NCBI RefSeq assembly: GCF_000733935.1
Contig: NZ_JPON01000001.1
Location: forward strand, 3,482,623-3,546,622
Direction: 5' to 3'
From: Methylomarinum vadi
GTDB taxonomy: Bacteria > Pseudomonadota > Gammaproteobacteria > Methylococcales > Methylomonadaceae
DNA: 64,000 nt
The position numbers and the translations under genes are program-made. Shown here piece by piece: positions 6,911 through 63,038 of this stretch (position 1 is the first letter of the stretch; each line of letters begins with the position of its first letter). A model generated the notes under the pieces. It was given only the letters and a program-made list of their open reading frames with translations, had not been told where the DNA came from and did no database searches.

Positions 6911-7140
6911 TTAGTTATCAGCAAGTGCGTAGCCCAGTCCCTTATAACCAGTCAGGCGTTTGTCTCTCATCCGGTTTAGCATGGGCACATCATCCGCATA
7001 GTCATAAATGAGGACTTCGGTTTTGGCATGATGTAGCCGGTGTAGCCTTCCGACGTACTGGGCTAATGTGCCTTTCCAGGATACCGGTAAGACTAATAAC
7101 AAAGTATCCAGGCGAGCGTCATCAAATCCTTCGCCCAAGT
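6911..7140 (-). pseudogene. 3' fragment (C-terminal ~75 aa, helicase motif VI region) of the IS-disrupted AEP-primase/SF2-helicase gene
   Basis: GEGFDDARLDTLLLVLPVSWKGTLAQYVGRLHRLHH continues the helicase ORF, which ends ...ATGRYL at the other IS junction. Joining across the IS restores GRYLGEGFD. Confidence 0.7.
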
Positions 7141-8885
7141 GAGGCTGTCGTAAAAGCCCCCCAACCAGCTACATACGGTAAAATAACCCTATCCAAACCT
7201 ATTAGAAATAGATCAATGGCAGCCGAAGTAAACATTAGACCCGTCAGGACATTGTATAGCGCCAAGCAATATTCGCTATTCGATGAATGCGAGGTTGAAC
7301 CGTTACCTGAGTTGATCGCTCAATCGATCTCGAGCGAACCGATGGCCCATTTTGAAGCGCCCGACCCGCGCGGCTTATCGATCAACGGTAAACCGCTCGG
7401 CGAACATCTGGAGCACGCCGGCTTAACCATCCCGTTGAAATTGCGCCCCTTCCTGCAATCGCTATCCTTCGCCGAGTTCGAAGCCCGTTATCGGCCCGGC
7501 GGGCGTCCGCCGTATGCGCCACGTGCGATGGTGGGGATTATTCTCTACGGCCTGTTACAAGGCATCAGCAGCCTGCGCGACTTGGAGCGTTTAGCTCGAG
7601 CCGATGTGGGGTGTTGGTGGCTAAGTGGCGGTATCATGCCGGATCACTCAGTCATTGGCCGTTTCGTCCATCAGCATGCCGAATCATTGACGACCGAATT
7701 TTTCGATCAACTGGCGCGTCGTACTTTGAAAGTCACAGGCTCAGGCACGACGACGTTGGCGGGCGACGGTACCGTGATCGAAGCCATGTCCTCCCGGTTT
7801 CAATTGATGAAGGAAGAAGCGCTCAAGCAAGCCTTGGCGCAAGCGCAGGAAGCCGCGCAAGCCAAACCCGACGATGCAGCGGCAAGCAAGCGGTTGAACC
7901 TATTGGAACAAGCCCAAGCCGAGCTAAAGTCTCGCCAGCAAAAACAAGCCGCCAAAGGCAAAGATCCGGCCAAGACCCAAGTACAAAGCAACGAGCCGGA
8001 GGCGGTATTACAGCCGCAAAAGAACTCCAAAGACTTTCGCGGCAGTTATAAACCGTCGGTATTGGCGAACGACAATCGAGTGATCGTGGCTTGCGACGTT
8101 CATCCTTCCAGCGAAACCGAGGTGGTGCCGGGCTTACTGGATCGCGCCCAAGCCATGGGAGGCGTCGAAACAGCTCTGTTCGATGCTGGCTATTTCAGCA
8201 ATGGCGTCTTGGATACTGCTGAGCAACACAACATCGAATTGCTTTGTCCGGAAGGCCAAAGTGAAGGAGACGATTGGAACAAACAATCCAACAAACAAAT
8301 CCCCAAAAGCCGCTTTATTTATCAGGCCGACGACGACACCTATCGCTGTCCGGGGCAACAACGCTTGACTCGCCGTCACACCTGCAAAGGCGGTAAAAGT
8401 GGCCGCGCTTATACCGTCTACGCCTGCGATGCCTGTTCAGACTGCCCGCTGAAATCCCAATGCACGCGTAGCGAGAGTGGTCGCACCCTCAAACGCTATG
8501 ACAGCGATACACAAAAAGAAGCCCTGCGCCTGAAAATGGACCAGCCCGAACCTCGGCAACGCTATCGACAGCGGCAGGCCATGGTGGAGCCCGTCTTCAG
8601 TCAGCTACGCGGTCGCCAAGGTTTGAATCGCTTTCGCCGTAAAGGTTTGGCGGGTGTCAAAGTAGAGTTCGCCTTGCACGCCATGGCTTACAATCTGAGC
8701 CGCGCCTTAGTGGCAGCTCTTTTTCGTGCTTTATATCATTGGCTTAGCCGGTTTATGAGCTCGTTTGACCGAATGGTCGACATTTGGCTGAGTTACACTA
8801 CTGACTTGCCAACTTCGCCGACCGTGGAAAATACGGCCGGTTTCCAGTGGTAAATCAAAGAAATTGGGGTTTTACGACGCCCTCC
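7141..8885 (+). mobile_element. IS1182-family (IS5 superfamily) insertion sequence, copy 1, 1745 bp, imperfect ~20-bp TIRs (gaggctgtcgtaaaagcccc / ggggttttacgacgccctcc), 4-bp TSD AAGT
   Basis: Ends were defined by comparison with copy 2 at 40166..41910. The TSD aagt is read on both flanks. Confidence 0.8.
7216..8853 (+). CDS. IS1182-family DDE transposase (545 aa); the ORF-track start 7066 is an artefactual extension into the flank
   Basis: Has an InsH-like N-terminal domain (APRAMVGIILYGLLQGISSLRDLERLARADVGCWWLSGG) and a C-terminal zinc-ribbon (CPGQQ...CKGG...CDACSDCPLKSQC) before the last catalytic block. Copy 2 starts at the equivalent MAAE. Confidence 0.85.
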   Translation: MAAEVNIRPVRTLYSAKQYSLFDECEVEPLPELIAQSISSEPMAHFEAPDPRGLSINGKPLGEHLEHAGLTIPLKLRPFLQSLSFAEFEARYRPGGRPPYAPRAMVGIILYGLLQGISSLRDLERLARADVGCWWLSGGIMPDHSVIGRFVHQHAESLTTEFFDQLARRTLKVTGSGTTTLAGDGTVIEAMSSRFQLMKEEALKQALAQAQEAAQAKPDDAAASKRLNLLEQAQAELKSRQQKQAAKGKDPAKTQVQSNEPEAVLQPQKNSKDFRGSYKPSVLANDNRVIVACDVHPSSETEVVPGLLDRAQAMGGVETALFDAGYFSNGVLDTAEQHNIELLCPEGQSEGDDWNKQSNKQIPKSRFIYQADDDTYRCPGQQRLTRRHTCKGGKSGRAYTVYACDACSDCPLKSQCTRSESGRTLKRYDSDTQKEALRLKMDQPEPRQRYRQRQAMVEPVFSQLRGRQGLNRFRRKGLAGVKVEFALHAMAYNLSRALVAALFRALYHWLSRFMSSFDRMVDIWLSYTTDLPTSPTVENTAGFQW

Positions 8886-33427: not shown

Positions 33428-33606
33428 GGGCTCGGGCAAGCCTGGACGCTTATTGCCGAGTGGGCTGAATAAGATACGAGATTTTCTGTCTCGTGTGGTT
33501 TCGCCTTGGTCTGTAGTTAGCTGGAAACGGGATAGCATCGAGTTTTGCATGTTATCCCGTTTAGAGAAACTGACGTTGGGGGGTAAAGGTTGTCAACTGA
33601 GGTTGA

Positions 33607-34368
33607 ATGAAGTTAAGATCGCTGGGTCGGGATAATAACTTGTTAGAGCCAATTAAGAGAAAAATGAAGCGAATATTCGTACCAACAATTTCAGGTTCCG
33701 ACTGGCAGCGCCTTTTAGGGAAGCCAAAGCTTCACTGGAAAAAGGGATATTCCGCAATGTCTGCTGCGGCATGCTGGGAAGATAATCACCCAAATTTGCC
33801 ATCTGAAATAGTTGAGACTCTCCATTCAACTGATGAGCTAAGCTTAAAAAGCTTAGAGTTATTGGCTGCCATTCCTGAATGGGAAGTTGATCTACCAGGC
33901 GGTGATAGACCATCACAAACCGATATTCTAGCAATTACCCGAAATGAAAATGACTTAGTAATTTTAGCTGTAGAGGCAAAAGTTGAAGAACCTTTTGGAC
34001 CAACTCTTGAAGAAAAGAAAAATGGTGCATCGGAGGGTCAATTAAGTCGAATCAGCTACCTTGAAGATATGCTTGGCCGTACAACTCCATTTCCCAGTCA
34101 TATTCGGTATCAACTCTTGCACCGCTCGGTGTCAGCATTGTTAACTGCCAAATCGTTCCACTCTTCAATTGCTGTCATGCTAGTTCATTCGTTTAGCCAA
34201 TCTTCAAAATGGCGCAATGAGTTTGAAGCGTTTTGCTCCGAATTAAAATGTACATCTTTATCGAATGATGTTTGGGAAGTGCCAAACATCAAAGACGGAA
34301 GGCTTTTGCTGGGTTGGTGTAAAGGAAATCCTGCATATTTGGCGATGGAGTTACCAAGTGGGCTCTAA
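33607..34368 (+). CDS. Hypothetical protein with a candidate PD-(D/E)xK nuclease-fold motif (TDILAI ... LVILAVEAKVEE); AT-rich
   Basis: GAGG SD 4 nt before the ATG; D...E-A-K spacing of ~17 residues in a predicted beta-strand context; no other recognisable domain. Confidence 0.4.
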   Translation: MKLRSLGRDNNLLEPIKRKMKRIFVPTISGSDWQRLLGKPKLHWKKGYSAMSAAACWEDNHPNLPSEIVETLHSTDELSLKSLELLAAIPEWEVDLPGGDRPSQTDILAITRNENDLVILAVEAKVEEPFGPTLEEKKNGASEGQLSRISYLEDMLGRTTPFPSHIRYQLLHRSVSALLTAKSFHSSIAVMLVHSFSQSSKWRNEFEAFCSELKCTSLSNDVWEVPNIKDGRLLLGWCKGNPAYLAMELPSGL

Positions 34369-34455
34369 CAAGGCAATTCACACGGATGCCAAAACCGCCG
34401 CTTCGCTCTGGTTTTGGCCCCGGTGATTGCGGCGTTATGTGCATGAGGGTACGAG

Positions 34456-35106
34456 ATGAACGATAGTCTTGTGACAATATTGGGAAGTTCGTATTTTGAA
34501 CCAATTAGTGCATTGCTTGAAAAGCTGGAGAAACACGAGAGCAATATCTCTAACCAAGTTCAATCTGGCTATTACGAAAAAGGGTTTGCTGCATCGATCT
34601 GTATTCTGAGTGTGGTCTGCCTGGAGTCATACGTAATGAGAGTTAGGTATATTAATTCTGCCAACCAAGATCATATTGATAGAACGCCTGTTGTTAGTTA
34701 CTTAAAGTCACTATATCCAGATTTTCCGTTTGAAAACGAATTACTGGAATTACATATATTGAGAGACCTCCTGGCCCACAATCACCTATGGGAAATATCA
34801 TATTCATTTAACGAAGATGATGAAATGGAAATTAGTGAGGTAGAAAAAAGAAGTTCTGGTGATAAAAAATATCGGCAACGTGTAGATACGGAAAATCACG
34901 TAACAAAAACTCTAGGCCTGAACGTGAACCCAATTAAGGTAGGGGCTTCAGACGTTAAGTTGGTCCTTCAGACGATGTGGAAAATTCTACTTTTTCTTGA
35001 GAGCAAGAATAGAAATCAATGCTACGTATCTCATCTGCGCGCGGTATATAAGGGCACACTAAGGCAGTTTGGTGAAATCATTGGTATGCCAGAAACATGC
35101 ACATAA
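34456..35106 (+). CDS. Hypothetical protein (216 aa), AT-rich, partner of the preceding gene; its TAA stop coincides with the first bases of the IS91-family element
   Basis: ORF with an SD; no recognisable motif. Confidence 0.4.
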   Translation: MNDSLVTILGSSYFEPISALLEKLEKHESNISNQVQSGYYEKGFAASICILSVVCLESYVMRVRYINSANQDHIDRTPVVSYLKSLYPDFPFENELLELHILRDLLAHNHLWEISYSFNEDDEMEISEVEKRSSGDKKYRQRVDTENHVTKTLGLNVNPIKVGASDVKLVLQTMWKILLFLESKNRNQCYVSHLRAVYKGTLRQFGEIIGMPETCT

Positions 35107-35415
35107 CGAATAAGGTTAGATTGTAATCGCGGAGCGAGCCACAATCTGAACCGTTTGTTGGACAAGCCCGGTATTCGGAGGGAGCGTTATATAAGAAAAT
35201 AGCTTTTCGAAGGATTGGGGGATGTGTTGGCCCATTTCAAGCGTTGACGTCGATAAACGGGCTGAAATGGGCGTGATGCTGATCATCACACCCGGAATTT
35301 CGGATTTTAGCGGCATTTTGCCCTGAATTCAGACCGAACGAAAGCCTCGGTGCTAAAATGCCCGATGATCGGTTTGGGTCAGTGAGAAATGCCGCTTACA
35401 TAACCGGTTTTGCCT

Positions 35416-36513
35416 CTACGCTTTGGTCGAATTCAATGCCATGACAGCCGAAGAACCGAGAATGCGCGTTTTGATAATCTGCAGGGTTCCACCACAACAT
35501 GGGCATTGGAGTTTCGGGCGGGGCCTGAGCCAAGCGATAGCACGATTGGGATTGACGCCGAGCAAGACTTGCAGCAGACGAATCAGCCGTTTGCTGTTGG
35601 GGTGCAAAAAGCCGAAGTTGCGAGTCCGCCTAAAGCCTTTGGGCAGAACATGGCGGAGCATCAGCCACAGAAACTTCACGCCGGGTAGTGTTCGAGTCTG
35701 CCACTTTTTGGTTTTGCTGTCCTGGTAACGGAAGGTTACTTGGCCATCTCGGCAGGCAATAATGTCCTTTTCCTGGATAACGCCCTTATAGAGATAACGT
35801 CCCAGATAAACCAAGGCTTTATCGCCGCGTCCGACCGACTTGACGTCAACGACCCATTGTTGCGGATAGTAGTCAGGCAATGTCAAACCGGCCTGCGAGA
35901 TCGCTTCAAGCAATTTGGCCCGAAACACTTTGGCCACTGCCTTGTGATTGAACAAATAGCCTTTCCGGCCCTTTTTACCCTGTTTGGTGCGCCACAGTCG
36001 TTTATCAGGATCGATGGCGGCCGCCGGCATCACCAAGTGTACATGCGGATGGTAATCCAATCGGCGGGAATGGGTATGCAACACAGCAATAGCACCGGCA
36101 TTGCCCTGAAGCTGTTGATCGTTGCGGGTGAAGGTGTTGACGGTATCCCAACTACAGCGGATCAGCAGATCATACAACGTACGTTGCTGTTGCCAGGCCA
36201 ACGGCCTGAGTTCTTTGGGCAAAGTAAACGTCAGCAAAAAATATTCGGCCGGCACCTGCTTCTGCAACTGCCTTTCCAGCCATTGTTGCGATTCGTGCGA
36301 CTGGCAATGCGGGCAGCTGCGATGGCCGCAGGAATGCGGCACCAAGCGTTGCCGATCGCAATCATCGCATTGCGCCAACATCACAGGGCCTTGCGACGTG
36401 CGGCAGTGTTTCATCGCGGCCAGCGCCTGACGCTGACTGGGTGACAAGCGACCCTGGTAAGCGACCAGAAACTCGGCTTCGAAGGTTTGGATGATGGCGG
36501 AAAGCAAGATCAT
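35416..36513 (-). CDS. IS91-family HUH/Y2 transposase
   Basis: HUH motif [18 protein letters not shown]; Y2 motif YLGRYLYKG; N-terminal Cys/His zinc-binding cluster. Confidence 0.85.
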
Positions 36514-37417
36514 TTGACCGCCCCCCAGTCGATGTCGAAGCCATTCATTAAGGCATTAATCAACTGGCCGGTATTTTGATTCGTGCCGTCGGTCAGGTGA
36601 GTATAGCGGGCAGTGGTGAGGATACTGTGGTGACCGAGGATTTTCTGCACTTCCAGTAGATCGACGCCCGCTTCAATCAAATGTGTGGCATAGCTATGCC
36701 GCAGACAGTGCGGGGTAATCTTTTTTTTAAACCGCAGTCTTGCGCGACTTGGCGCAGAGCCTTTTGCACGCCACCGCGATCCAAAGGGCTCTGCGCGCGC
36801 TGCGCGCCCTTCAAACCGCCATGGCGATTGGGAAACAACATGACCGGATGCCGGTGAACTTGCCAGAAGCGGCGTAGCAAATCCAGGGTGGCAGCCGGCA
36901 ACGGCACCAGTCTATCCTTATTGCCCTTGGCATCTCGGATATGCACGCGTTGGCGACCGGCATCGATATCCCCAACCTCAAGACGCAATCCCTCGCCGAG
37001 GCGCAAACCTAGACTGTAGAGCGTGAAAAAGAACACCCGGTAACTGAGAATACGCGTGGACTGGAAGATACACCGCGCCTCGTCGACAGTGACGATATCC
37101 GGCAAACGTTGCGCCTTCGGCGGCTTGACCAACTGCGGCGCGACCCAAGGCTTGCGCAGTACATGGGTGTAATAAAACTTGAGACCGTACAGGTCCAACT
37201 TGACCGCACTCCAAGAATGCGACTCCAGCAAATCGGTGAAATAATCGGTCAGTTGCTGTTCGGTCAACGCATTGATGTCTTCGTTGAAATACTGGCCGAT
37301 ACGTCGAATCGCACGGGCATAGGCCTCGATCGTCTTGGGCTGCAACCCTTTAAGTTTGAGGTGTTTCAGATGGCTTTGATAGTTTTGCTTGAAATGGGGT
37401 TCGAATGATGTTGTCAT
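36510..37417 (-). CDS. Tyrosine recombinase (phage-integrase family) of the IS91-family element. Full length requires a -1 frameshift in an A8 run at ~36721-36728. The zero-frame product (36677..37417) stops 14 codons after the run.
   Basis: The -1 frame after the A-run reads [46 protein letters not shown], which are integrase box II and the catalytic Tyr. Its TGA overlaps the transposase ATG (ATGA). Confidence 0.65.
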
Positions 37418-37621
37418 TGTCGCGTAACCTCATGATTCGTCATGGAATAATCCCTCTTAAAAGAGGGCGTGAGATTACATTTTATAAATTACCGGCTACT
37501 GCCGCTTTTCTCCGCGTTAGCGGCTTCGTCCAACACGGCATTCCACCCGACCAAAAACCGCTACGCGGTTTTCCTCGGGTGAGCTTGGCGTTAGCTTTGA
37601 AATTACGAATTTGAGGCGTCA

Positions 37622-37963
37622 ATGAGCAGAAAAAAACACCGAAGCACACGCGCTGCCCGTAAAGGCCCAATTATGTCCGCGGAAATGAGTGCAAAAATCT
37701 TCGAGGCATTAAATGATCGTCGCTATGTCGCACGAACCATAAAAGGCATAGCAACATCAACACATTTGAGAGAGCCGCAGGTGGTGGAAGTGTTGCGTAA
37801 CGATCAGAATTTGCGCGGTGCGGTGAAGATTTACCCGCGTAAGTCGAAAAATGGCAAATTACTAATTACCACCAAAGAAAAATTTGAAAAAACCGCCACA
37901 ACACTCGATAGGTTTATCGATTATTTCGCTACGAAAAAGGAGAGTTTTGATGACTTCTCCTGA
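37622..37963 (+). CDS. Hypothetical small basic protein (possible winged-helix)
   Basis: ORF with a GAGG SD; AT-rich. Confidence 0.3.
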   Translation: MSRKKHRSTRAARKGPIMSAEMSAKIFEALNDRRYVARTIKGIATSTHLREPQVVEVLRNDQNLRGAVKIYPRKSKNGKLLITTKEKFEKTATTLDRFIDYFATKKESFDDFS

Positions 37964-38309
37964 TGGGGTTTCAATTACGCAACTAATTAGCTCGAATCAA
38001 CTTCTGATTTTTATCGCCTTTTTTGGTGGAGTAGTTCTTTTTGGAATGAAAATGGCCGAGCATTTTTCTCGGAAGCCAGAAAATAAATTCTCGAACGGTC
38101 GATATTTCTTGTACTTTGTCTTTTTGCTTGTCTCACTTCCAATACTTGGCTCGGCAGTTGTAATAATATACTTAGCAAACGGCGACAAAATAAGTCCTGT
38201 ATTGGCATTTCAAATAGGATTGACGTCACCTGCGATAGTCCAAAGCTTAATAATTGCCGCAGCAAACAAATTCAAAGAAGGTGGTCTAGAAACCACAAGT
38301 GGACAGTGA
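37950..38309 (+). CDS. Hypothetical small 3-TM membrane protein (start at MTSPDGV with an AAGGAG SD; overlaps the upstream gene by 14 nt)
   Basis: Hydrophobic helices; translational coupling. Confidence 0.3.
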   Translation: MTSPDGVSITQLISSNQLLIFIAFFGGVVLFGMKMAEHFSRKPENKFSNGRYFLYFVFLLVSLPILGSAVVIIYLANGDKISPVLAFQIGLTSPAIVQSLIIAAANKFKEGGLETTSGQ

Positions 38310-38385
38310 AAGCTAACAATGCCGTAAACTCGGGCGCATTTTTCGTTCGCTGCGCTCACTACAAACGCACTGGTTACGGCTGGCG

Positions 38386-38688
38386 TTATGGCTCATTTAG
38401 GTGAGGTATCGCATCCATTCTTTTATGGAGAGCTCGAACAATTTCAATTTTGTTTTCTGAGAGAGTTCGGTAAAAAACGATGTGGCCAGTAACAGGAAGT
38501 TTTCGGTAGCCTATTTTTATGTAGTCACAAGCAATGCCAATATCTGGGGTATCAGCAAGCAAATGGAAAGCATCGTCAAATTGTTTCAAGTAAATTCGTC
38601 GTTGTTCTTTGCCCCATTTCCTTTGGGTGTATGCAGCAATGGACTTTAGGTCAGATTTGGCTTGGTTGGTAAGTTGAAATGTACCCAT
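38386..38688 (-). CDS. parE: ParE/RelE-family toxin
   Basis: ~100 aa; C-terminal RelE/ParE fold motifs; overlaps the upstream parD by 1 nt. Confidence 0.8.
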   Translation of the reverse strand: MGTFQLTNQAKSDLKSIAAYTQRKWGKEQRRIYLKQFDDAFHLLADTPDIGIACDYIKIGYRKLPVTGHIVFYRTLSENKIEIVRALHKRMDAIPHLNEP

Positions 38689-38927
38689 TAACCAAACTCA
38701 TCATCCAGATCGTTCATGAGGCCTTCATAGCTGTACTCAGCTGTGCCACTGTTTTCGCCCTCTTCAAGCAAGCGTCGGAGAGTGGCAATCTTGTGTTCGT
38801 AGTCTTCAAGCATTCTAAGGCCTGCACGTACAACTTCGCTGGCAGAGGCATAGCGTCCCTCTGCTATTTGTTGGGCTATAAAACCATCAAAGTGGTCACC
38901 AAGGGTCATACTGGTGTTTTTGGGCAT
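38688..38927 (-). CDS. parD: ParD-family (RHH) antitoxin
   Basis: MSMTLGDHFDGFIAQQIAEGRYASASEVVRAGLRMLE is a ParD signature. Confidence 0.75.
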   Translation of the reverse strand: MPKNTSMTLGDHFDGFIAQQIAEGRYASASEVVRAGLRMLEDYEHKIATLRRLLEEGENSGTAEYSYEGLMNDLDDEFG

Positions 38928-39251
38928 GTCAGGGTGCCTCCAATATCAAATATGGGTATTTGATGGTACAAAACCATAACCAACGGGTCAACTTGACCGT
39001 CAAACGCCACGCTCCTATCGTCGTGCTACACATTCGGATATAGGGGGCGTGTCGTCGGTTCGGACGAAATTGTTGGTGTCTGATACGCGAAAATAAATGT
39101 ATTACGCCAAGATTCATAATTTATTGTAGCGACATGATTCGTTGTGCAATAACATCAATATGCTAAGCCCGGTTCAACTTGGCCAGTCACAAGAGGCGGG
39201 TAATCCGTAAGGTTTTCAAGAACCATAGTCGTTGTTGCGGGTATCGATAGC

Positions 39252-40165: not shown

Positions 40166-41910
40166 GGAGGGCGTCGTAAAACCCCAATTTCTTTGATTTA
40201 CCACTGGAAACCGGCCGTATTTTCCACGGTCGGCGAAGTTGGCAAGTCAGTAGTGTAACTCAGCCAAATGTCGACCATTCGGTCAAACGAGCTCATAAAC
40301 CGGCTAAGCCAATGATATAAAGCACGAAAAAGAGCTGCCACTAAGGCGCGGCTCAGATTGTAAGCCATGGCGTGCAAGGCGAACTCTACTTTGACACCCG
40401 CCAAACCTTTACGGCGAAAGCGATTCAAGCCTTGGCGACCGCGTAGCTGACTGAAGACTGGCTCCACCATGGCCTGCCGCTGCCGATAGCGTTGCCGAGG
40501 TTCGGGCTGGGCCATTTTCAGGCGCAGGGCTTCTTTTTGGGTATCGCTGTCATAGCGTTTGAGGGTGCGACCGCTTTCGCTACGCGTGCATTGGGATTTC
40601 AGCGGACAGTCTGAACAGGCATCGCAGGCGTAGACGGTATAAGCATGGCCACTTTTACCGCCTTTGCAGGTGTGACGGCGAGTCAAGCGTTGTTGCCCCG
40701 GACAGCGATAAGTGTCGTCGTCGGCCTGATAAATAAAGCGGCTTTTGGGGATTTGTTTGTTGGATTGTTTGTTCCAATCGTCTCCTTCACTTTGGCCTTC
40801 CGGACAAAGCAATTCGATGTTGTGTTGCTCAGCAGTATCCAAGACGCCATTGCTGAAATAGCCAGCATCGAACAGAGCTGTTTCGACGCCTCCCAGGGCT
40901 TGGGCGCGATCCAGTAAGCCCGGCACCACCTCGGTTTCACTGGAAGGATGAACGTCGCAAGCCACGATCACTCGATTGTCGTTCGCCAATACCGACGGTT
41001 TATAACTGCTGCGAAAGTCTTTGGAGTTCTTTTGCGGCTGTAATACCGCCTCCGGCTCGTTGCTTTGTACTTGGGTCTTGGCCGGATCTTTGCCTTTGGC
41101 GGCTTGTTTTTGCTGGCGAGACTTTAGCTCGGCTTGGGCTTGTTCCAGACCGTTCATACGCTTAGTCGCAGCCGCATCGTTTGGGTTGGCTTGCGCGGCT
41201 TCCTTCGCTTGCGCCAAGGCTTGGTTGAGCGCTTCTTCCTTCATCAATCGAAACCGGGAGGACATGGCTTCGATCACGGTACCGTCACCCGCCAACGCCG
41301 TCGTGCCGGAGCCGGTGACTTTCAAAGTACGACGCGTTAGTTGATCGAAAAATTCGGTCGTCAATGAGTCGGCATGCTGATGGACGAAACGGCCAATGAC
41401 GGAGTGATCCGGCATGATACCGCCACTTAGCCACCAACACCCCACATCGGCTCGAGCTAAACGCTCCAAGTCGCGCAGGCTGCTGATGCCTTGTAACAGG
41501 CCGTAGAGAATGATCCCCACCATCGCACATGGCGCATACGGCGGACGCCCGCCGGGCCGATAACGGGCTTCGAACTCGGCGAAGGATAGCGATTGCAAGA
41601 AGGGGCGCAATTTCAACGGGATGGTTAAGCCGGCGTGCTCCAGATGTTCGCCGAGCGGTTTACCGTTGATCGATAAGCCGCGCGGGTCGGGCGCTTCAAA
41701 ACGGGCCATCGGTTCGCTTGAGATCGATTGAGCGATCAACTCAGGTAACGGTTCAACCTCGCATTCATCGAATAGCGAATATTGCTTGGCGCTATACAAT
41801 GTCTTGACGGGTCTAATGTTCGCTTCGGCTGCCATTGATCTATTTCTAATAGGTTTGGACAGGGTTATTTTACCGTATGTAGCTGGTTGGGGGGCTTTTA
41901 CGACAGCCTC
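40166..41910 (-). mobile_element. IS1182-family insertion sequence, copy 2, 1745 bp, 4-bp TSD CTCT, inverted relative to copy 1
   Basis: Same TIRs as copy 1; ctct on both flanks; inserted between the STAS gene and the ABC ATPase gene. Confidence 0.8.
40198..41835 (-). CDS. IS1182-family DDE transposase (copy 2). It has scattered substitutions relative to copy 1, so the copies are not identical.
   Basis: 545-aa protein collinear with 7216..8853; differences include MARFEAPD vs MAHFEAPD and PCAMVG vs PRAMVG. Confidence 0.85.
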   Translation of the reverse strand: MAAEANIRPVKTLYSAKQYSLFDECEVEPLPELIAQSISSEPMARFEAPDPRGLSINGKPLGEHLEHAGLTIPLKLRPFLQSLSFAEFEARYRPGGRPPYAPCAMVGIILYGLLQGISSLRDLERLARADVGCWWLSGGIMPDHSVIGRFVHQHADSLTTEFFDQLTRRTLKVTGSGTTALAGDGTVIEAMSSRFRLMKEEALNQALAQAKEAAQANPNDAAATKRMNGLEQAQAELKSRQQKQAAKGKDPAKTQVQSNEPEAVLQPQKNSKDFRSSYKPSVLANDNRVIVACDVHPSSETEVVPGLLDRAQALGGVETALFDAGYFSNGVLDTAEQHNIELLCPEGQSEGDDWNKQSNKQIPKSRFIYQADDDTYRCPGQQRLTRRHTCKGGKSGHAYTVYACDACSDCPLKSQCTRSESGRTLKRYDSDTQKEALRLKMAQPEPRQRYRQRQAMVEPVFSQLRGRQGLNRFRRKGLAGVKVEFALHAMAYNLSRALVAALFRALYHWLSRFMSSFDRMVDIWLSYTTDLPTSPTVENTAGFQW

Positions 41911-59595: not shown

Positions 59596-59951
59596 CGTTA
59601 TCCGGCGGATGAACGTGTATCATCGGGATAATTGAGTCCTAACGAATAAGGTTAGATTGTAATCGCGGAGCGAGCCACAATCTGAACCGTTTGTTGGACA
59701 AGCCCGGTATTCGGAGGGAGCGTTATATAAGAAAATAGCTTTTCGAAGGATTGGGGGATGTGTTGGCCCATTTCAAGCGTTGACGTCGATAAACGGGCTG
59801 AAATGGGCGTGATGCTGATCATCACACCCGGAATTTCGGATTTTAGCGGCATTTTGCCCTGAATTCAGACCGAACGAAAGCCTCGGTGCTAAAATGCCCG
59901 ATGATCGGTTTGGGTCAGTGAGAAATGCCGCTTACATAACCGGTTTTGCCT

Positions 59952-61049
59952 CTACGCTTTGGTCGAATTCAATGCCATGACAGCCGAAGAACCGAGAATG
60001 CGCGTTTTGATAATCTGCAGGGTTCCACCACAACATGGGCATTGGAGTTTCGGGCGGGGCCTGAGCCAAGCGATAGCACGATTGGGATTGACGCCGAGCA
60101 AGACTTGCAGCAGACGAATCAGCCGTTTGCTGTTGGGGTGCAAAAAGCCGAAGTTGCGAGTCCGCCTAAAGCCTTTGGGCAGAACATGGCGGAGCATCAG
60201 CCACAGAAACTTCACGCCGGGTAGTGTTCGAGTCTGCCACTTTTTGGTTTTGCTGTCCTGGTAACGGAAGGTTACTTGGCCATCTCGGCAGGCAATAATG
60301 TCCTTTTCCTGGATAACGCCCTTATAGAGATAACGTCCCAGATAAACCAAGGCTTTATCGCCGCGTCCGACCGACTTGACGTCAACGACCCATTGTTGCG
60401 GATAGTAGTCAGGCAATGTCAAACCGGCCTGCGAGATCGCTTCAAGCAATTTGGCCCGAAACACTTTGGCCACTGCCTTGTGATTGAACAAATAGCCTTT
60501 CCGGCCCTTTTTACCCTGTTTGGTGCGCCACAGTCGTTTATCAGGATCGATGGCGGCCGCCGGCATCACCAAGTGTACATGCGGATGGTAATCCAATCGG
60601 CGGGAATGGGTATGCAACACAGCAATAGCACCGGCATTGCCCTGAAGCTGTTGATCGTTGCGGGTGAAGGTGTTGACGGTATCCCAACTACAGCGGATCA
60701 GCAGATCATACAACGTACGTTGCTGTTGCCAGGCCAACGGCCTGAGTTCTTTGGGCAAAGTAAACGTCAGCAAAAAATATTCGGCCGGCACCTGCTTCTG
60801 CAACTGCCTTTCCAGCCATTGTTGCGATTCGTGCGACTGGCAATGCGGGCAGCTGCGATGGCCGCAGGAATGCGGCACCAAGCGTTGCCGATCGCAATCA
60901 TCGCATTGCGCCAACATCACAGGGCCTTGCGACGTGCGGCAGTGTTTCATCGCGGCCAGCGCCTGACGCTGACTGGGTGACAAGCGACCCTGGTAAGCGA
61001 CCAGAAACTCGGCTTCGAAGGTTTGGATGATGGCGGAAAGCAAGATCAT
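59952..61049 (-). CDS. IS91-family HUH/Y2 transposase (copy 2)
   Basis: Identical to 35416..36513. Confidence 0.85.
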
Positions 61050-61953
61050 TTGACCGCCCCCCAGTCGATGTCGAAGCCATTCATTAAGGCATTAATCAAC
61101 TGGCCGGTATTTTGATTCGTGCCGTCGGTCAGGTGAGTATAGCGGGCAGTGGTGAGGATACTGTGGTGACCGAGGATTTTCTGCACTTCCAGTAGATCGA
61201 CGCCCGCTTCAATCAAATGTGTGGCATAGCTATGCCGCAGACAGTGCGGGGTAATCTTTTTTTTAAACCGCAGTCTTGCGCGACTTGGCGCAGAGCCTTT
61301 TGCACGCCACCGCGATCCAAAGGGCTCTGCGCGCGCTGCGCGCCCTTCAAACCGCCATGGCGATTGGGAAACAACATGACCGGATGCCGGTGAACTTGCC
61401 AGAAGCGGCGTAGCAAATCCAGGGTGGCAGCCGGCAACGGCACCAGTCTATCCTTATTGCCCTTGGCATCTCGGATATGCACGCGTTGGCGACCGGCATC
61501 GATATCCCCAACCTCAAGACGCAATCCCTCGCCGAGGCGCAAACCTAGACTGTAGAGCGTGAAAAAGAACACCCGGTAACTGAGAATACGCGTGGACTGG
61601 AAGATACACCGCGCCTCGTCGACAGTGACGATATCCGGCAAACGTTGCGCCTTCGGCGGCTTGACCAACTGCGGCGCGACCCAAGGCTTGCGCAGTACAT
61701 GGGTGTAATAAAACTTGAGACCGTACAGGTCCAACTTGACCGCACTCCAAGAATGCGACTCCAGCAAATCGGTGAAATAATCGGTCAGTTGCTGTTCGGT
61801 CAACGCATTGATGTCTTCGTTGAAATACTGGCCGATACGTCGAATCGCACGGGCATAGGCCTCGATCGTCTTGGGCTGCAACCCTTTAAGTTTGAGGTGT
61901 TTCAGATGGCTTTGATAGTTTTGCTTGAAATGGGGTTCGAATGATGTTGTCAT
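61046..61953 (-). CDS. Tyrosine recombinase of IS91-family element copy 2 (same A8 frameshift site at ~61257-61264)
   Basis: Identical to copy 1. Confidence 0.65.
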
Positions 61954-62069
61954 TGTCGCGTAACCTCATGATTCGTCATGGAATAATCCCTCTTAAAAGA
62001 GGGCGTGAGATTACATTTTATAAATTACCGGCTACTGCCGCTTTTCTCCGCGTTAGCGGCTTCGTCCAA

Positions 62070-63038
62070 CTATTCGTTCTCGTCCTCGTCGGATACCTTG
62101 ATCACGATATTGACGCGGCGGTTTTTTTGCCGGCCTTGTTCGCTGGCGTTGTCGGCCACCGGTTTGGTATCGGCATAGGTGACCGCTCGCATGCGCGCGG
62201 CGTCGATTTGCTGCGAGGCCAGAAAATGCAGCACGCTGGTGGCCCTGGCCGCCCCCAGTTCCCAATTGGAGGGAAATTGGGCCGTCTTTATCGGACGGTT
62301 ATCGGTATGCCCCTCTATATAAATCAATCCCTTAGCTTGTTTCAGCAGCGGAGTCAATTTGCTCAAGACGGCGCGGCCCGATTCGGTCAGGGCTGCTTCC
62401 GATGATTGGTAGAGAATATTGTCTTGTATTTCCAGTTGGGCGTAACCCTGAGTGACGGTCATGTTGATGCTGTTGTTCAGCCCTAACTGTTCCAGCTGTT
62501 GTTGCAATTGCTGTTGGCTTGCTTGTTCAGGCGGGGGCTCTGTCGGTTGCATTTGTTCGACGGATTCCGTTACTTCCTGACTCGGTAGCGCCCGTTCCTC
62601 GGTGACTGCGGGTTCTTCTACCGGTTCGACAACGGATGGCGCTACCTCTATGGCTGCGTTTTCTGCCGGCTCGACGGGAATCGGTGCAACGGGTTCGATT
62701 TCGGCGGTGGAATCTTCGGTTTCCGGCGCAGCCGTTTCGGACTCGGGCGCGGCTGGTTCGACTGGCGCTTGCTCGGGCGTTGTTTCCCTTTCGGCCTTTG
62801 CGGAGGCGGCCGCCTCGGGAGGGGCGGGGGCAGTCACGGTCGCAAGGGCGTCGCGTGCCTGACTCGGGACCGGCTCGAAACTGCTCAGGGCAACCAGCGT
62901 GACCACCAGCATCACGACCAAGACGAAGACATCGATATAGGTCAGCAACCAATTCGGTGGATGGCGTCTGTCGCTCAGGCTAAGCAATTCGTCGATGCTC
63001 TGCGATGATTCGAGGCGGGAAAAGGATGGCCGGGGCAT
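62070..63038 (-). CDS. MotB/OmpA-family peptidoglycan-anchoring protein with a long acidic Pro/Ala/Glu-rich linker
   Basis: N-terminal TM; C-terminal OmpA-like IEGHTDNRPI...NWELGAARA; its stop codon abuts the IS91 boundary. Confidence 0.75.
   Translation of the reverse strand: MPRPSFSRLESSQSIDELLSLSDRRHPPNWLLTYIDVFVLVVMLVVTLVALSSFEPVPSQARDALATVTAPAPPEAAASAKAERETTPEQAPVEPAAPESETAAPETEDSTAEIEPVAPIPVEPAENAAIEVAPSVVEPVEEPAVTEERALPSQEVTESVEQMQPTEPPPEQASQQQLQQQLEQLGLNNSINMTVTQGYAQLEIQDNILYQSSEAALTESGRAVLSKLTPLLKQAKGLIYIEGHTDNRPIKTAQFPSNWELGAARATSVLHFLASQQIDAARMRAVTYADTKPVADNASEQGRQKNRRVNIVIKVSDEDENE

Follow-up and report, generated by a model that had tools for sequence, protein, structure and literature searches.

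Two adjacent nuclease-like genes of Methylomarinum vadi as separate cassettes of a probable integron array without an integrase

Results

Two neighbouring genes lie in separate integron cassettes

We analysed a 64-kb stretch of the Methylomarinum vadi contig NZ_JPON01000001.1 (the window, to which all coordinates refer) that contains two neighbouring genes on the + strand, here named A and B. Gene A encodes a DUF6946 protein and gene B a HEPN-fold protein of a family that has no name. Adjacent nuclease-like genes beside an insertion sequence (IS) resemble one defence operon, and the first-pass annotation of this DNA had read the pair as a nuclease-plus-partner module. Here they are separate integron cassettes. 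The "87-bp spacer" between the two genes is the integron attC site of cassette A, and the adjacency of A and B stems from site-specific recombination alone, each family travelling by itself and often between its own attC sites. The region is very probably an array of four cassettes without an integrase, that is, a CALIN (clustered attC sites with no integron-integrase), in which A and B are the first two, independently mobile cassettes.

The two AT-rich open reading frames (ORFs), 33607..34368 and 34456..35106, are present on the + strand at the coordinates first given for them, with a gap of 87 bp (34369-34455). Their cassettes have a GC content of 0.437 (A) and 0.389 (B), below that of the upstream gamma-carbonic-anhydrase (gamma-CA) gene (0.555) and of the whole window (0.498), and the foreign or mobile origin proposed for both genes is supported. 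The start of gene A has to be moved. It most likely lies at 33664 and not at 33607, because nearly all homologues have 234 aa and begin with MKRIF at the position matching 33664. The core site GTTAGAG (33642-33648) falls within the longer ORF 33607..34368. The features of the first two cassettes are as follows.

33643..34434, + strand: cassette A, 792 bp, from G|TTAGAG to the G of GTTATGT in attC_A
33664..34368, + strand: gene A, 234 aa, DUF6946
34363..34440, + strand: attC_A, with R'' CTCTAAC, an imperfect palindrome and R' GTTATGT
34435..35107, + strand: cassette B left of the IS; the cassette resumes at 37535-37590
34456..35106, + strand: gene B, 216 aa, HEPN-fold protein of a family without name
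35101..35107, + strand: R'' box ACATAAC of attC_B, which includes the TAA stop of gene B
37535..37596, + strand: remainder of attC_B, ending in R' GTTAGCT

The integron crossover point comes after the G of GTTRRRY, and in an integrated cassette the last six attC bases (TTRRRY) sit at its 5' end. Since these bases belong to the cassette's own attC, which would be whole again in the circular form, the R'' 7-mer of a cassette is the reverse complement of its 5' GTTRRRY box. Each cassette of the array runs from TTRRRY through a short leader and its ORF or ORFs into the attC, up to the G. Exact complementarity of the two 7-mers was found in all four consecutive cassettes of the window:

Cassette A: 5' box GTTAGAG (33642-33648), R'' CTCTAAC (34363-34369), DUF6946 gene
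Cassette B: 5' box GTTATGT (34434-34440), R'' ACATAAC (35101-35107), HEPN-fold gene
Cassette C: 5' box GTTAGCT (37590-37596), R'' AGCTAAC (38311-38317), two family-less ORFs
Cassette D: 5' box GTTATGG (38385-38391), R'' CCATAAC (38974-38980), ParE/ParD on the opposite strand

Covariance models recognise the attC sites

The attC sites were searched with two covariance models. R1 was built from 12 sites, 3 of them from the window and 9 from homologue loci. Its seeds were trimmed to 30+30 nt and the structure was written by hand; MAFFT alignment of full-length attC sites had misplaced the 3' arms, and scoring of the arm duplex alone was abandoned after it had overlooked obvious sites. R2 was built solely from 71 R1 matches in loci of the B family and contains no window sites. 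In the window R2 matched at 34361-34442, 37526-37598 and 38309-38392, all on the + strand, and the rest of this strand gave nothing convincing. attC_A reached 37.7 bits (E 8.7e-7) with R2 and 19.9 bits with R1, and its bottom strand folds with −18.3 kcal/mol (z = −2.9). The remainder of attC_B (37526-37598) reached 25.1 bits with R2 (E 8e-4), and attC_C 29.1 bits with R2 (E 9e-5) and 18.8 bits with R1. In the folds R'' and R' pair up, and two bulged bases are found on the 5' arm. Across the 12 sites 65% of cells are paired, versus 56% in shuffles (0/500 shuffles equal the observed value), and 13 base pairs are changed on both sides. Applied to the homologue loci, R1 gave 97 matches, 94 of them on the gene's own strand. 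Thus the length first reported for the spacer holds, but a plain intergenic spacer it is not.

The scan for an integrase compared the 38 window ORFs of at least 200 aa with integron-integrase models. Among these ORFs the integrase model was touched by the two copies of an IS alone. The recombinase of this IS was considered as the missing IntI and rejected, since it scores 91 bits against a cut-off of 265 (TIGR02249) and its gene is split. By definition a CALIN has two or more attC sites that share a strand within 4 kb and no intI in the vicinity, and 83% of CALINs have fewer than six sites (PMC4889954). The array described here has same-strand sites at 34363, 37528 and 38311 and falls under this definition, because the scanned window ORFs include no IntI. 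It is not a complete integron: the gamma-CA gene lies 5' of the first cassette, and IntI and attI were not found.

The A and B families do not travel together

The comparison covered 80 DUF6946 loci, taken from reference genomes, and 82 loci of the B family, taken mostly from metagenomes. When co-occurrence was counted, at least 1 kb was available on both sides in 58 A loci and 30 B loci. None of the 162 loci holds both genes. No recurrent neighbour was seen either: BLAST clustering of 1,733 neighbour ORFs gave no cluster present in more than 4 loci, and a sample of 150 neighbours spans 137 Pfam families. A PADLOC scan of these 150 neighbours returned few matches (AbiLi, AriA, DolB and PDC candidates) and had no baseline, so enrichment is not claimed. 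An 88%-identical homologue of A has another gene downstream, yet an attC follows the A gene there as well, and the closest B homologues on long contigs are without DUF6946.

These data bear on the view that the pair is a single operon of nuclease plus partner, acquired together as one defence or abortive-infection module. The two genes do lie on the same strand at a short distance, both are AT-rich and both are nuclease-like. The attC site between them, the complementary R'/R'' boundaries that each gene has for itself, the complete lack of co-occurrence and the different neighbours of close homologues nevertheless make such an operon very improbable. While the original observation on this locus is largely correct overall, its two-gene module reading is unsupported.

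Traces of cassette carriage are found in both families. An attC abuts the stop codon in 20/74 B loci and 6/79 A loci. An exact R''/R' complement lies at most 45 nt from the start codon in 11/63 B loci and 7/50 A loci, with about 0.3 expected by chance in total. In many DUF6946 homologues a GTTAGAGCGCA...ATG leader is present 14-18 nt upstream, and many homologues retain GTTAGAGCGCA or the GTTATGT leader even where no full attC was detected.

At 60-88% identity, the A and B families occur in Gammaproteobacteria, Planctomycetota, Desulfobacterota, Nitrospirota, Saccharibacteria and others. Purifying selection on both genes is strong. For A and its 88%-identical homologue the ratio of nonsynonymous to synonymous divergence (dN/dS) is 0.08 (locus L163); in the other pairs synonymous sites are saturated, with dN of 0.2-0.3. 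The B family is absent from the plasmid and phage collections. The A family is absent from the phage collection, and in the plasmid collection it is represented by distant "hypothetical proteins" on 7 plasmids, mostly alphaproteobacterial.

Two observations on B-family loci were made besides. Five metagenome contigs (L108, L115, L087, L120 and L125) carry 4-10 attC matches in series on one strand; these are large environmental arrays, where the B family supplies one cassette next to many unknown ones. In Nitrospira sp. CP126121 (L001, 7950-8660) a B-family gene lies outside any detected array, adjoining TraT genes, a Macro-domain gene and a DUF433 gene, and retains GTTATAT ... ACATAAC boundaries. 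This case suggests cassettes that have become fixed outside integrons.

Protein A has a PD-(D/E)xK core

For protein A no family signature had been recognised at first. In fact it belongs to Pfam PF22187, DUF6946, which it matches over the full length (249.3 bits, with a cut-off of 27; E 3e-74; profile positions 4-213 of 214). DUF6946 corresponds to component 6,732, from the "functionally dark" cluster of Durairaj et al. 2023 (PMC10584680). The two papers in the searched library that name DUF6946 do not mention a PD-(D/E)xK fold, a catalytic triad or cassette carriage. One of them also describes TumE-TumA; a link of DUF6946 to that system was considered and discarded, since TumE is DUF6516, another family.

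Protein A has a PD-(D/E)xK restriction-endonuclease-like core fold. Its core has the alpha-beta-beta-beta-alpha-beta order of PD-(D/E)xK nucleases such as NucS, Can2, the FokI and BspD6I cleavage domains and McrC, and, as in these enzymes, D is located on the second core strand and ExK on the third. Strand 84-93 contains D87, and the strand adjacent to it in the core sheet, 98-106, contains E104-A-K106. The D...EAK block, which had been noticed from the outset, is conserved in the family alignment (66 members, down to 24% identity): D87 in 56/66, E104 in 58/66 with D in three more, and K106 in 58/66. The resemblance to the named nucleases (NucS, Can2, FokI, BspD6I, McrC) is one of structure, with 6-14% sequence identity, and the DUF6946 profile gave chance matches only against PDB sequences. 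The first 60 residues of protein A and its C-terminal helices are peculiar to DUF6946. Protein A is predicted to act as a stand-alone Mg-dependent DNA endonuclease.

Protein A could also be a housekeeping DNA-repair nuclease like NucS/EndoMS that merely happens to lie beside mobile DNA. We consider this extremely improbable. The structural match to these enzymes covers the nuclease core alone (103 residues, 12% identity), the genomic context of A differs in every genome, A is patchy across phyla at 65-88% identity, attC flanks it in several loci, and its GC content is unlike that of the host. Neither protein was placed in a characterised non-defence family, and the nuclease residues of A are conserved in its homologues.

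Protein B is a HEPN-fold protein

Protein B has no match in Pfam, NCBIfam, PADLOC or PHROGs. Its family comprises 519 clusters at 50% identity, almost all of them stand-alone proteins of about 215 aa. It is an unnamed family with a HEPN fold: the four helices of the core of protein B run up and down, and an insert separates helix 2 from helix 3, the arrangement by which this fold is recognised. Only R103 and H108 are invariant in the family alignment, which has 49 members down to 25% identity. They form an Rx4H motif, R103-D-L-L-A-H108, at the end of helix 93-107, in which the polar D104 follows the arginine, and E57 in the second helix (39-66) is at least 90% conserved. In HEPN RNases an Rx4-6H motif lies where helix 3 ends, its R is followed by a polar residue, and helix 2 contributes an acidic one (PMC3710099); the motif geometry of protein B agrees with this.

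Searches with sequences and structures gave little beyond this. Foldseek against PDB returned nothing significant for protein B, and the 49 members matched the HEPN families of Pfam only below threshold and in one or two members, with values of 0.0075 for HepT-like, 0.012 for HEPN_RiboL-PSP and 0.025 for pEK499_p136. A search of all PDB sequences with the B profile, at E up to 10, brought up one unrelated match and no HEPN entry, 3jrt included. We predict protein B to be a stand-alone, metal-independent HEPN RNase, probably dimeric.

The fold also opens the possibility that B, and perhaps A, is a toxin that stabilises the array or induces dormancy under stress, in the manner of toxin-antitoxin (TA) addiction, and has no role against phages. 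HEPN domains are common as TA toxins (HepT), dormancy has been proposed for integron-cassette HEPN proteins (PMC3710099), chromosomal integrons are stabilised by TA cassettes (PMC13108822), and the same array contains a ParDE cassette. Yet cassette B has a single ORF, no antitoxin (MNT or small partner) was found in it or recurring beside its homologues, and a toxin without neutralisation is not maintainable. We therefore rate the toxin function as rather unlikely.

An IS91-family element splits attC_B

The IS91-family element that had been named downstream of gene B is confirmed by its transposase (NF033538, 376 bits; also Y2_Tnp and Zn_Tnp_IS91). A block of 2,431 bp (35104-37534) is 100% identical to 59640-62070. 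The identical block starts at the TAA of gene B, as first observed; the further claim that the IS supplies this stop does not hold. The stop is most likely native and part of R'' ACATAAC, and the IS was inserted after R'', because gene B homologues without a nearby IS end in the same ACATAAC box and the right flank continues attC_B. TAAC precedes both IS copies, and the true ends of the element are uncertain by 1-4 bases (35108-37534 or 35107-37533). When the two parts of attC_B are rejoined, the 5' arm agrees at 20 of 26 positions with the attC that the B homologue has in the array contig L087; the IS-internal sequence does so at 11/26. The IS has probably immobilised cassette B and left it unable to be excised alone, because R'' now lies 2.4 kb from the remainder of attC_B.

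35104..37534, − strand: IS91-family element block, in attC_B just after R'', identical to the second copy
35099-35165 (− strand) and 37528-37534: cassette-like ends of the IS; in copy 2, 59636-59701 and 62064-62070

The element itself has some peculiar features. Its Xer/IntI-like tyrosine recombinase gene (− strand, 36510-37417; copy 61046-61953) is split into ORFs of 246 and 56 aa with a 4-nt overlap, and in both copies each ORF carries part of the Phage_integrase domain. A frameshift, a pseudogene or programmed recoding could account for the split. On the − strand the IS is cassette-like, starting with G|TTGGAC and ending in an attC-like hairpin with an exactly complementary R''-like GTCCAAC. 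R2 gave 19.0 bits (E 0.022) at this end and 15.1 bits in copy 2. Both copies are located at a G|TTA site, GTTATGT and GTTAGGA. This pattern could reflect IS91-type targeting of GTTC-like tetranucleotides or cassette-like recombination. The 2.43-kb element with its IntI-like recombinase may be a mobile cassette mimic that inserts by way of its attC-like end at GTT core sites, attC boxes among them.

The remainder of the array and its surroundings

The other features of the array and the upstream hairpin are listed here.

37591..38385, + strand: cassette C, GC 0.424, with ORFs 37622..37963 and about 37950..38309
38311..38391, + strand: attC_C, with R' GTTATGG
38386..38980, − strand: cassette D, with ParE 38386..38688 and ParD 38688..38927
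33525..33562, no strand: hairpin between the gamma-CA gene and the array, with a perfect 10-bp stem and an 18-nt loop

The two ORFs of cassette C overlap. The first encodes 113 aa, the second about 119 aa and a strongly hydrophobic product, and Pfam and NCBIfam searches gave no match for either. The proteins of cassette D match Pfam ParE_toxin (1e-19) and ParD_antitoxin (2e-30).

The array is flanked by the gamma-CA gene on one side and by rsbW/STAS-like genes on the other. Of the hairpin described between the gamma-CA gene and gene A, the 10-bp stem and the uniqueness stand, whereas the loop has 18 nt and not 17. It occurs once in the window, none of 100 shuffles gave a match, and its DNA fold has −11.4 kcal/mol (z = −5.1). 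It is no attC, as neither R1 nor R2 matches there. Directly 5' of the hairpin, at 33516-33522, a GTTAGCT is found that is the same as the R' box of attC_B (37590-37596) and is also complementary to R'' of cassette C. It could be what is left of an earlier cassette boundary; no attC was detectable near it. The stretch 33591-33648 was tried as a candidate attC or attI upstream of cassette A and set aside, as it folds poorly (−4.6 kcal/mol).

Two IS1182-family transposase genes lie in opposite orientation at 7066-8853 (+) and 40198-41835 (−) and share an identical stretch of at least 61 nt (7380-7440 / 41611-41671). The second is located about 1 kb past the rsbW/STAS genes that flank the array. 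One window ORF of at least 200 aa matches the NCBIfam McrC model at 5e-122. It is no neighbour of the array, since the stretch at 40-48 kb has the ORFs of an IS, an ABC transporter and a SpoIIE phosphatase.

Discussion

Possible functions of the two cassette genes

Single-gene integron cassettes with folds of this kind have recently been connected to phage defence. In the chromosomal integron of V. cholerae, Esos (HEPN-like only) and Taranis (Abi_C HEPN) confer phage resistance, and Epona, Divona and Damona are restriction-type, PD-DExK-related (Mrr/RecB-like) single-gene anti-phage cassettes; resistance by these cassettes acts via growth arrest or lysis (bioRxiv 10.1101/2024.07.02.601686). 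About a third of the unknown mobile-integron cassettes confer phage resistance too, and the BRiCs are such anti-phage cassettes of mobile integrons (10.1101/2024.07.02.601719). For an integron-cassette HEPN family, Anantharaman et al. proposed a role in dormancy (PMC3710099).

Because the HEPN-like and restriction-type single-gene cassettes of V. cholerae confer phage resistance, we propose a role as latent effector, triggered by stress or phage, which is plausible and the best-supported one for each gene on its own. A and B would each act singly as a latent nuclease; once triggered by stress or phage infection, either could stop growth or destroy the invading nucleic acid. A further proposal, which we put forward tentatively, is that DUF6946 and the unnamed HEPN family represent two new single-protein anti-phage systems, working by abortive infection or growth arrest, that spread across bacterial phyla as integron cassettes.

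Several points weigh against A and B being mobile defence cassettes. Proteins A and B gave no match to PADLOC-DB v2 at E up to 1; this library dates from 2023 and is older than the integron-cassette defence systems. The genes flanking the array are housekeeping or regulatory, and no defence island is present there. R2 is an indirect descendant of R1, and the three window sites were among R1's seeds. In the region 5' of cassette A (33428-33642) R1 and R2 found no full attC or attI, and the core site GTTAGAG stands alone; 3' of cassette D neither model detected an attC, which is degenerate or absent. Finally, no attC is detectable for the majority of A homologues (about 90% of genome loci) or for the majority of B homologues, and therefore both families also live outside integrons.

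The expression of the two genes in this array has to be considered as well. With neither a Pc promoter nor an integrase nearby, both are perhaps poorly expressed. They might even be silent cargo, unexpressed here and conserved via selection in other hosts or contexts, which we regard as conceivable but doubtful. Promoter-like sites occur at chance level (2 found versus 3.2 expected), CALIN cassettes have no Pc promoter to drive them (PMC4889954), and attC_B is split by the IS. On the other hand, both ORFs are intact and retain all catalytic residues, each gene is preceded by a Shine-Dalgarno-like leader, and read-through from the gamma-CA gene on the same strand is possible. Silence would in any case concern the expression state and is compatible with the predicted biochemistry.

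The two families offer cheap and well-defined candidates for phage-defence screens, because recent work has revealed a wealth of compact phage-defence genes among integron cassettes whose function is unknown. The Pfam "dark" family DUF6946 gains a PD-(D/E)xK fold, a conserved triad and frequent cassette carriage, and about 500 clusters of HEPN-fold proteins that are named in no library are delimited as a family. If they are single-protein anti-phage systems, this would be the first function for DUF6946 and a new HEPN clade in bacterial immunity. If they are active, the finding of defence genes in cassettes would reach past Vibrio and clinical integrons and take in environmental methanotrophs, Planctomycetota, Desulfobacterota and others.

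Comparison with known systems

Like the CALINs described in PMC4889954, the array is small, the functions of its cassettes are uncharacterised and resistance genes are missing, an IS is present, and the TA cassette lies on the opposite strand. It differs from them in that its 5' end has a core site only, the last attC is degenerate, and one attC is split by an IS91-family element.

Unlike the named PD-(D/E)xK nucleases, protein A is not joined to a partner domain of the DNA-recognition, CARF, methylase or GTPase type. Protein B shares with HepT (SO_3166, PDB 5yep) the Rx4H motif with D after the R, located where helix 3 ends, and the acidic residue in helix 2. With the "Integron cassette HEPN" family (PDB 3jrt; Anantharaman et al. 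2013) it has in common that it travels on integron cassettes. In contrast to HepT and 3jrt, which have about 130 aa, protein B has 216 aa and contains beta-hairpin insertions, and in contrast to the HEPN-MNT (HepT-MntA) systems cassette B has a single ORF and no MNT neighbour, and no neighbour recurs in 78 B loci.

A and B can be likened to the V. cholerae defence cassettes by domain description. They differ from them in their host, which is a methanotroph and not a Vibrio, and they have no match in PADLOC. Like Esos, Taranis, Epona, Divona and Damona, both are small single-ORF cassettes with a lone nuclease-type domain and no partner gene.

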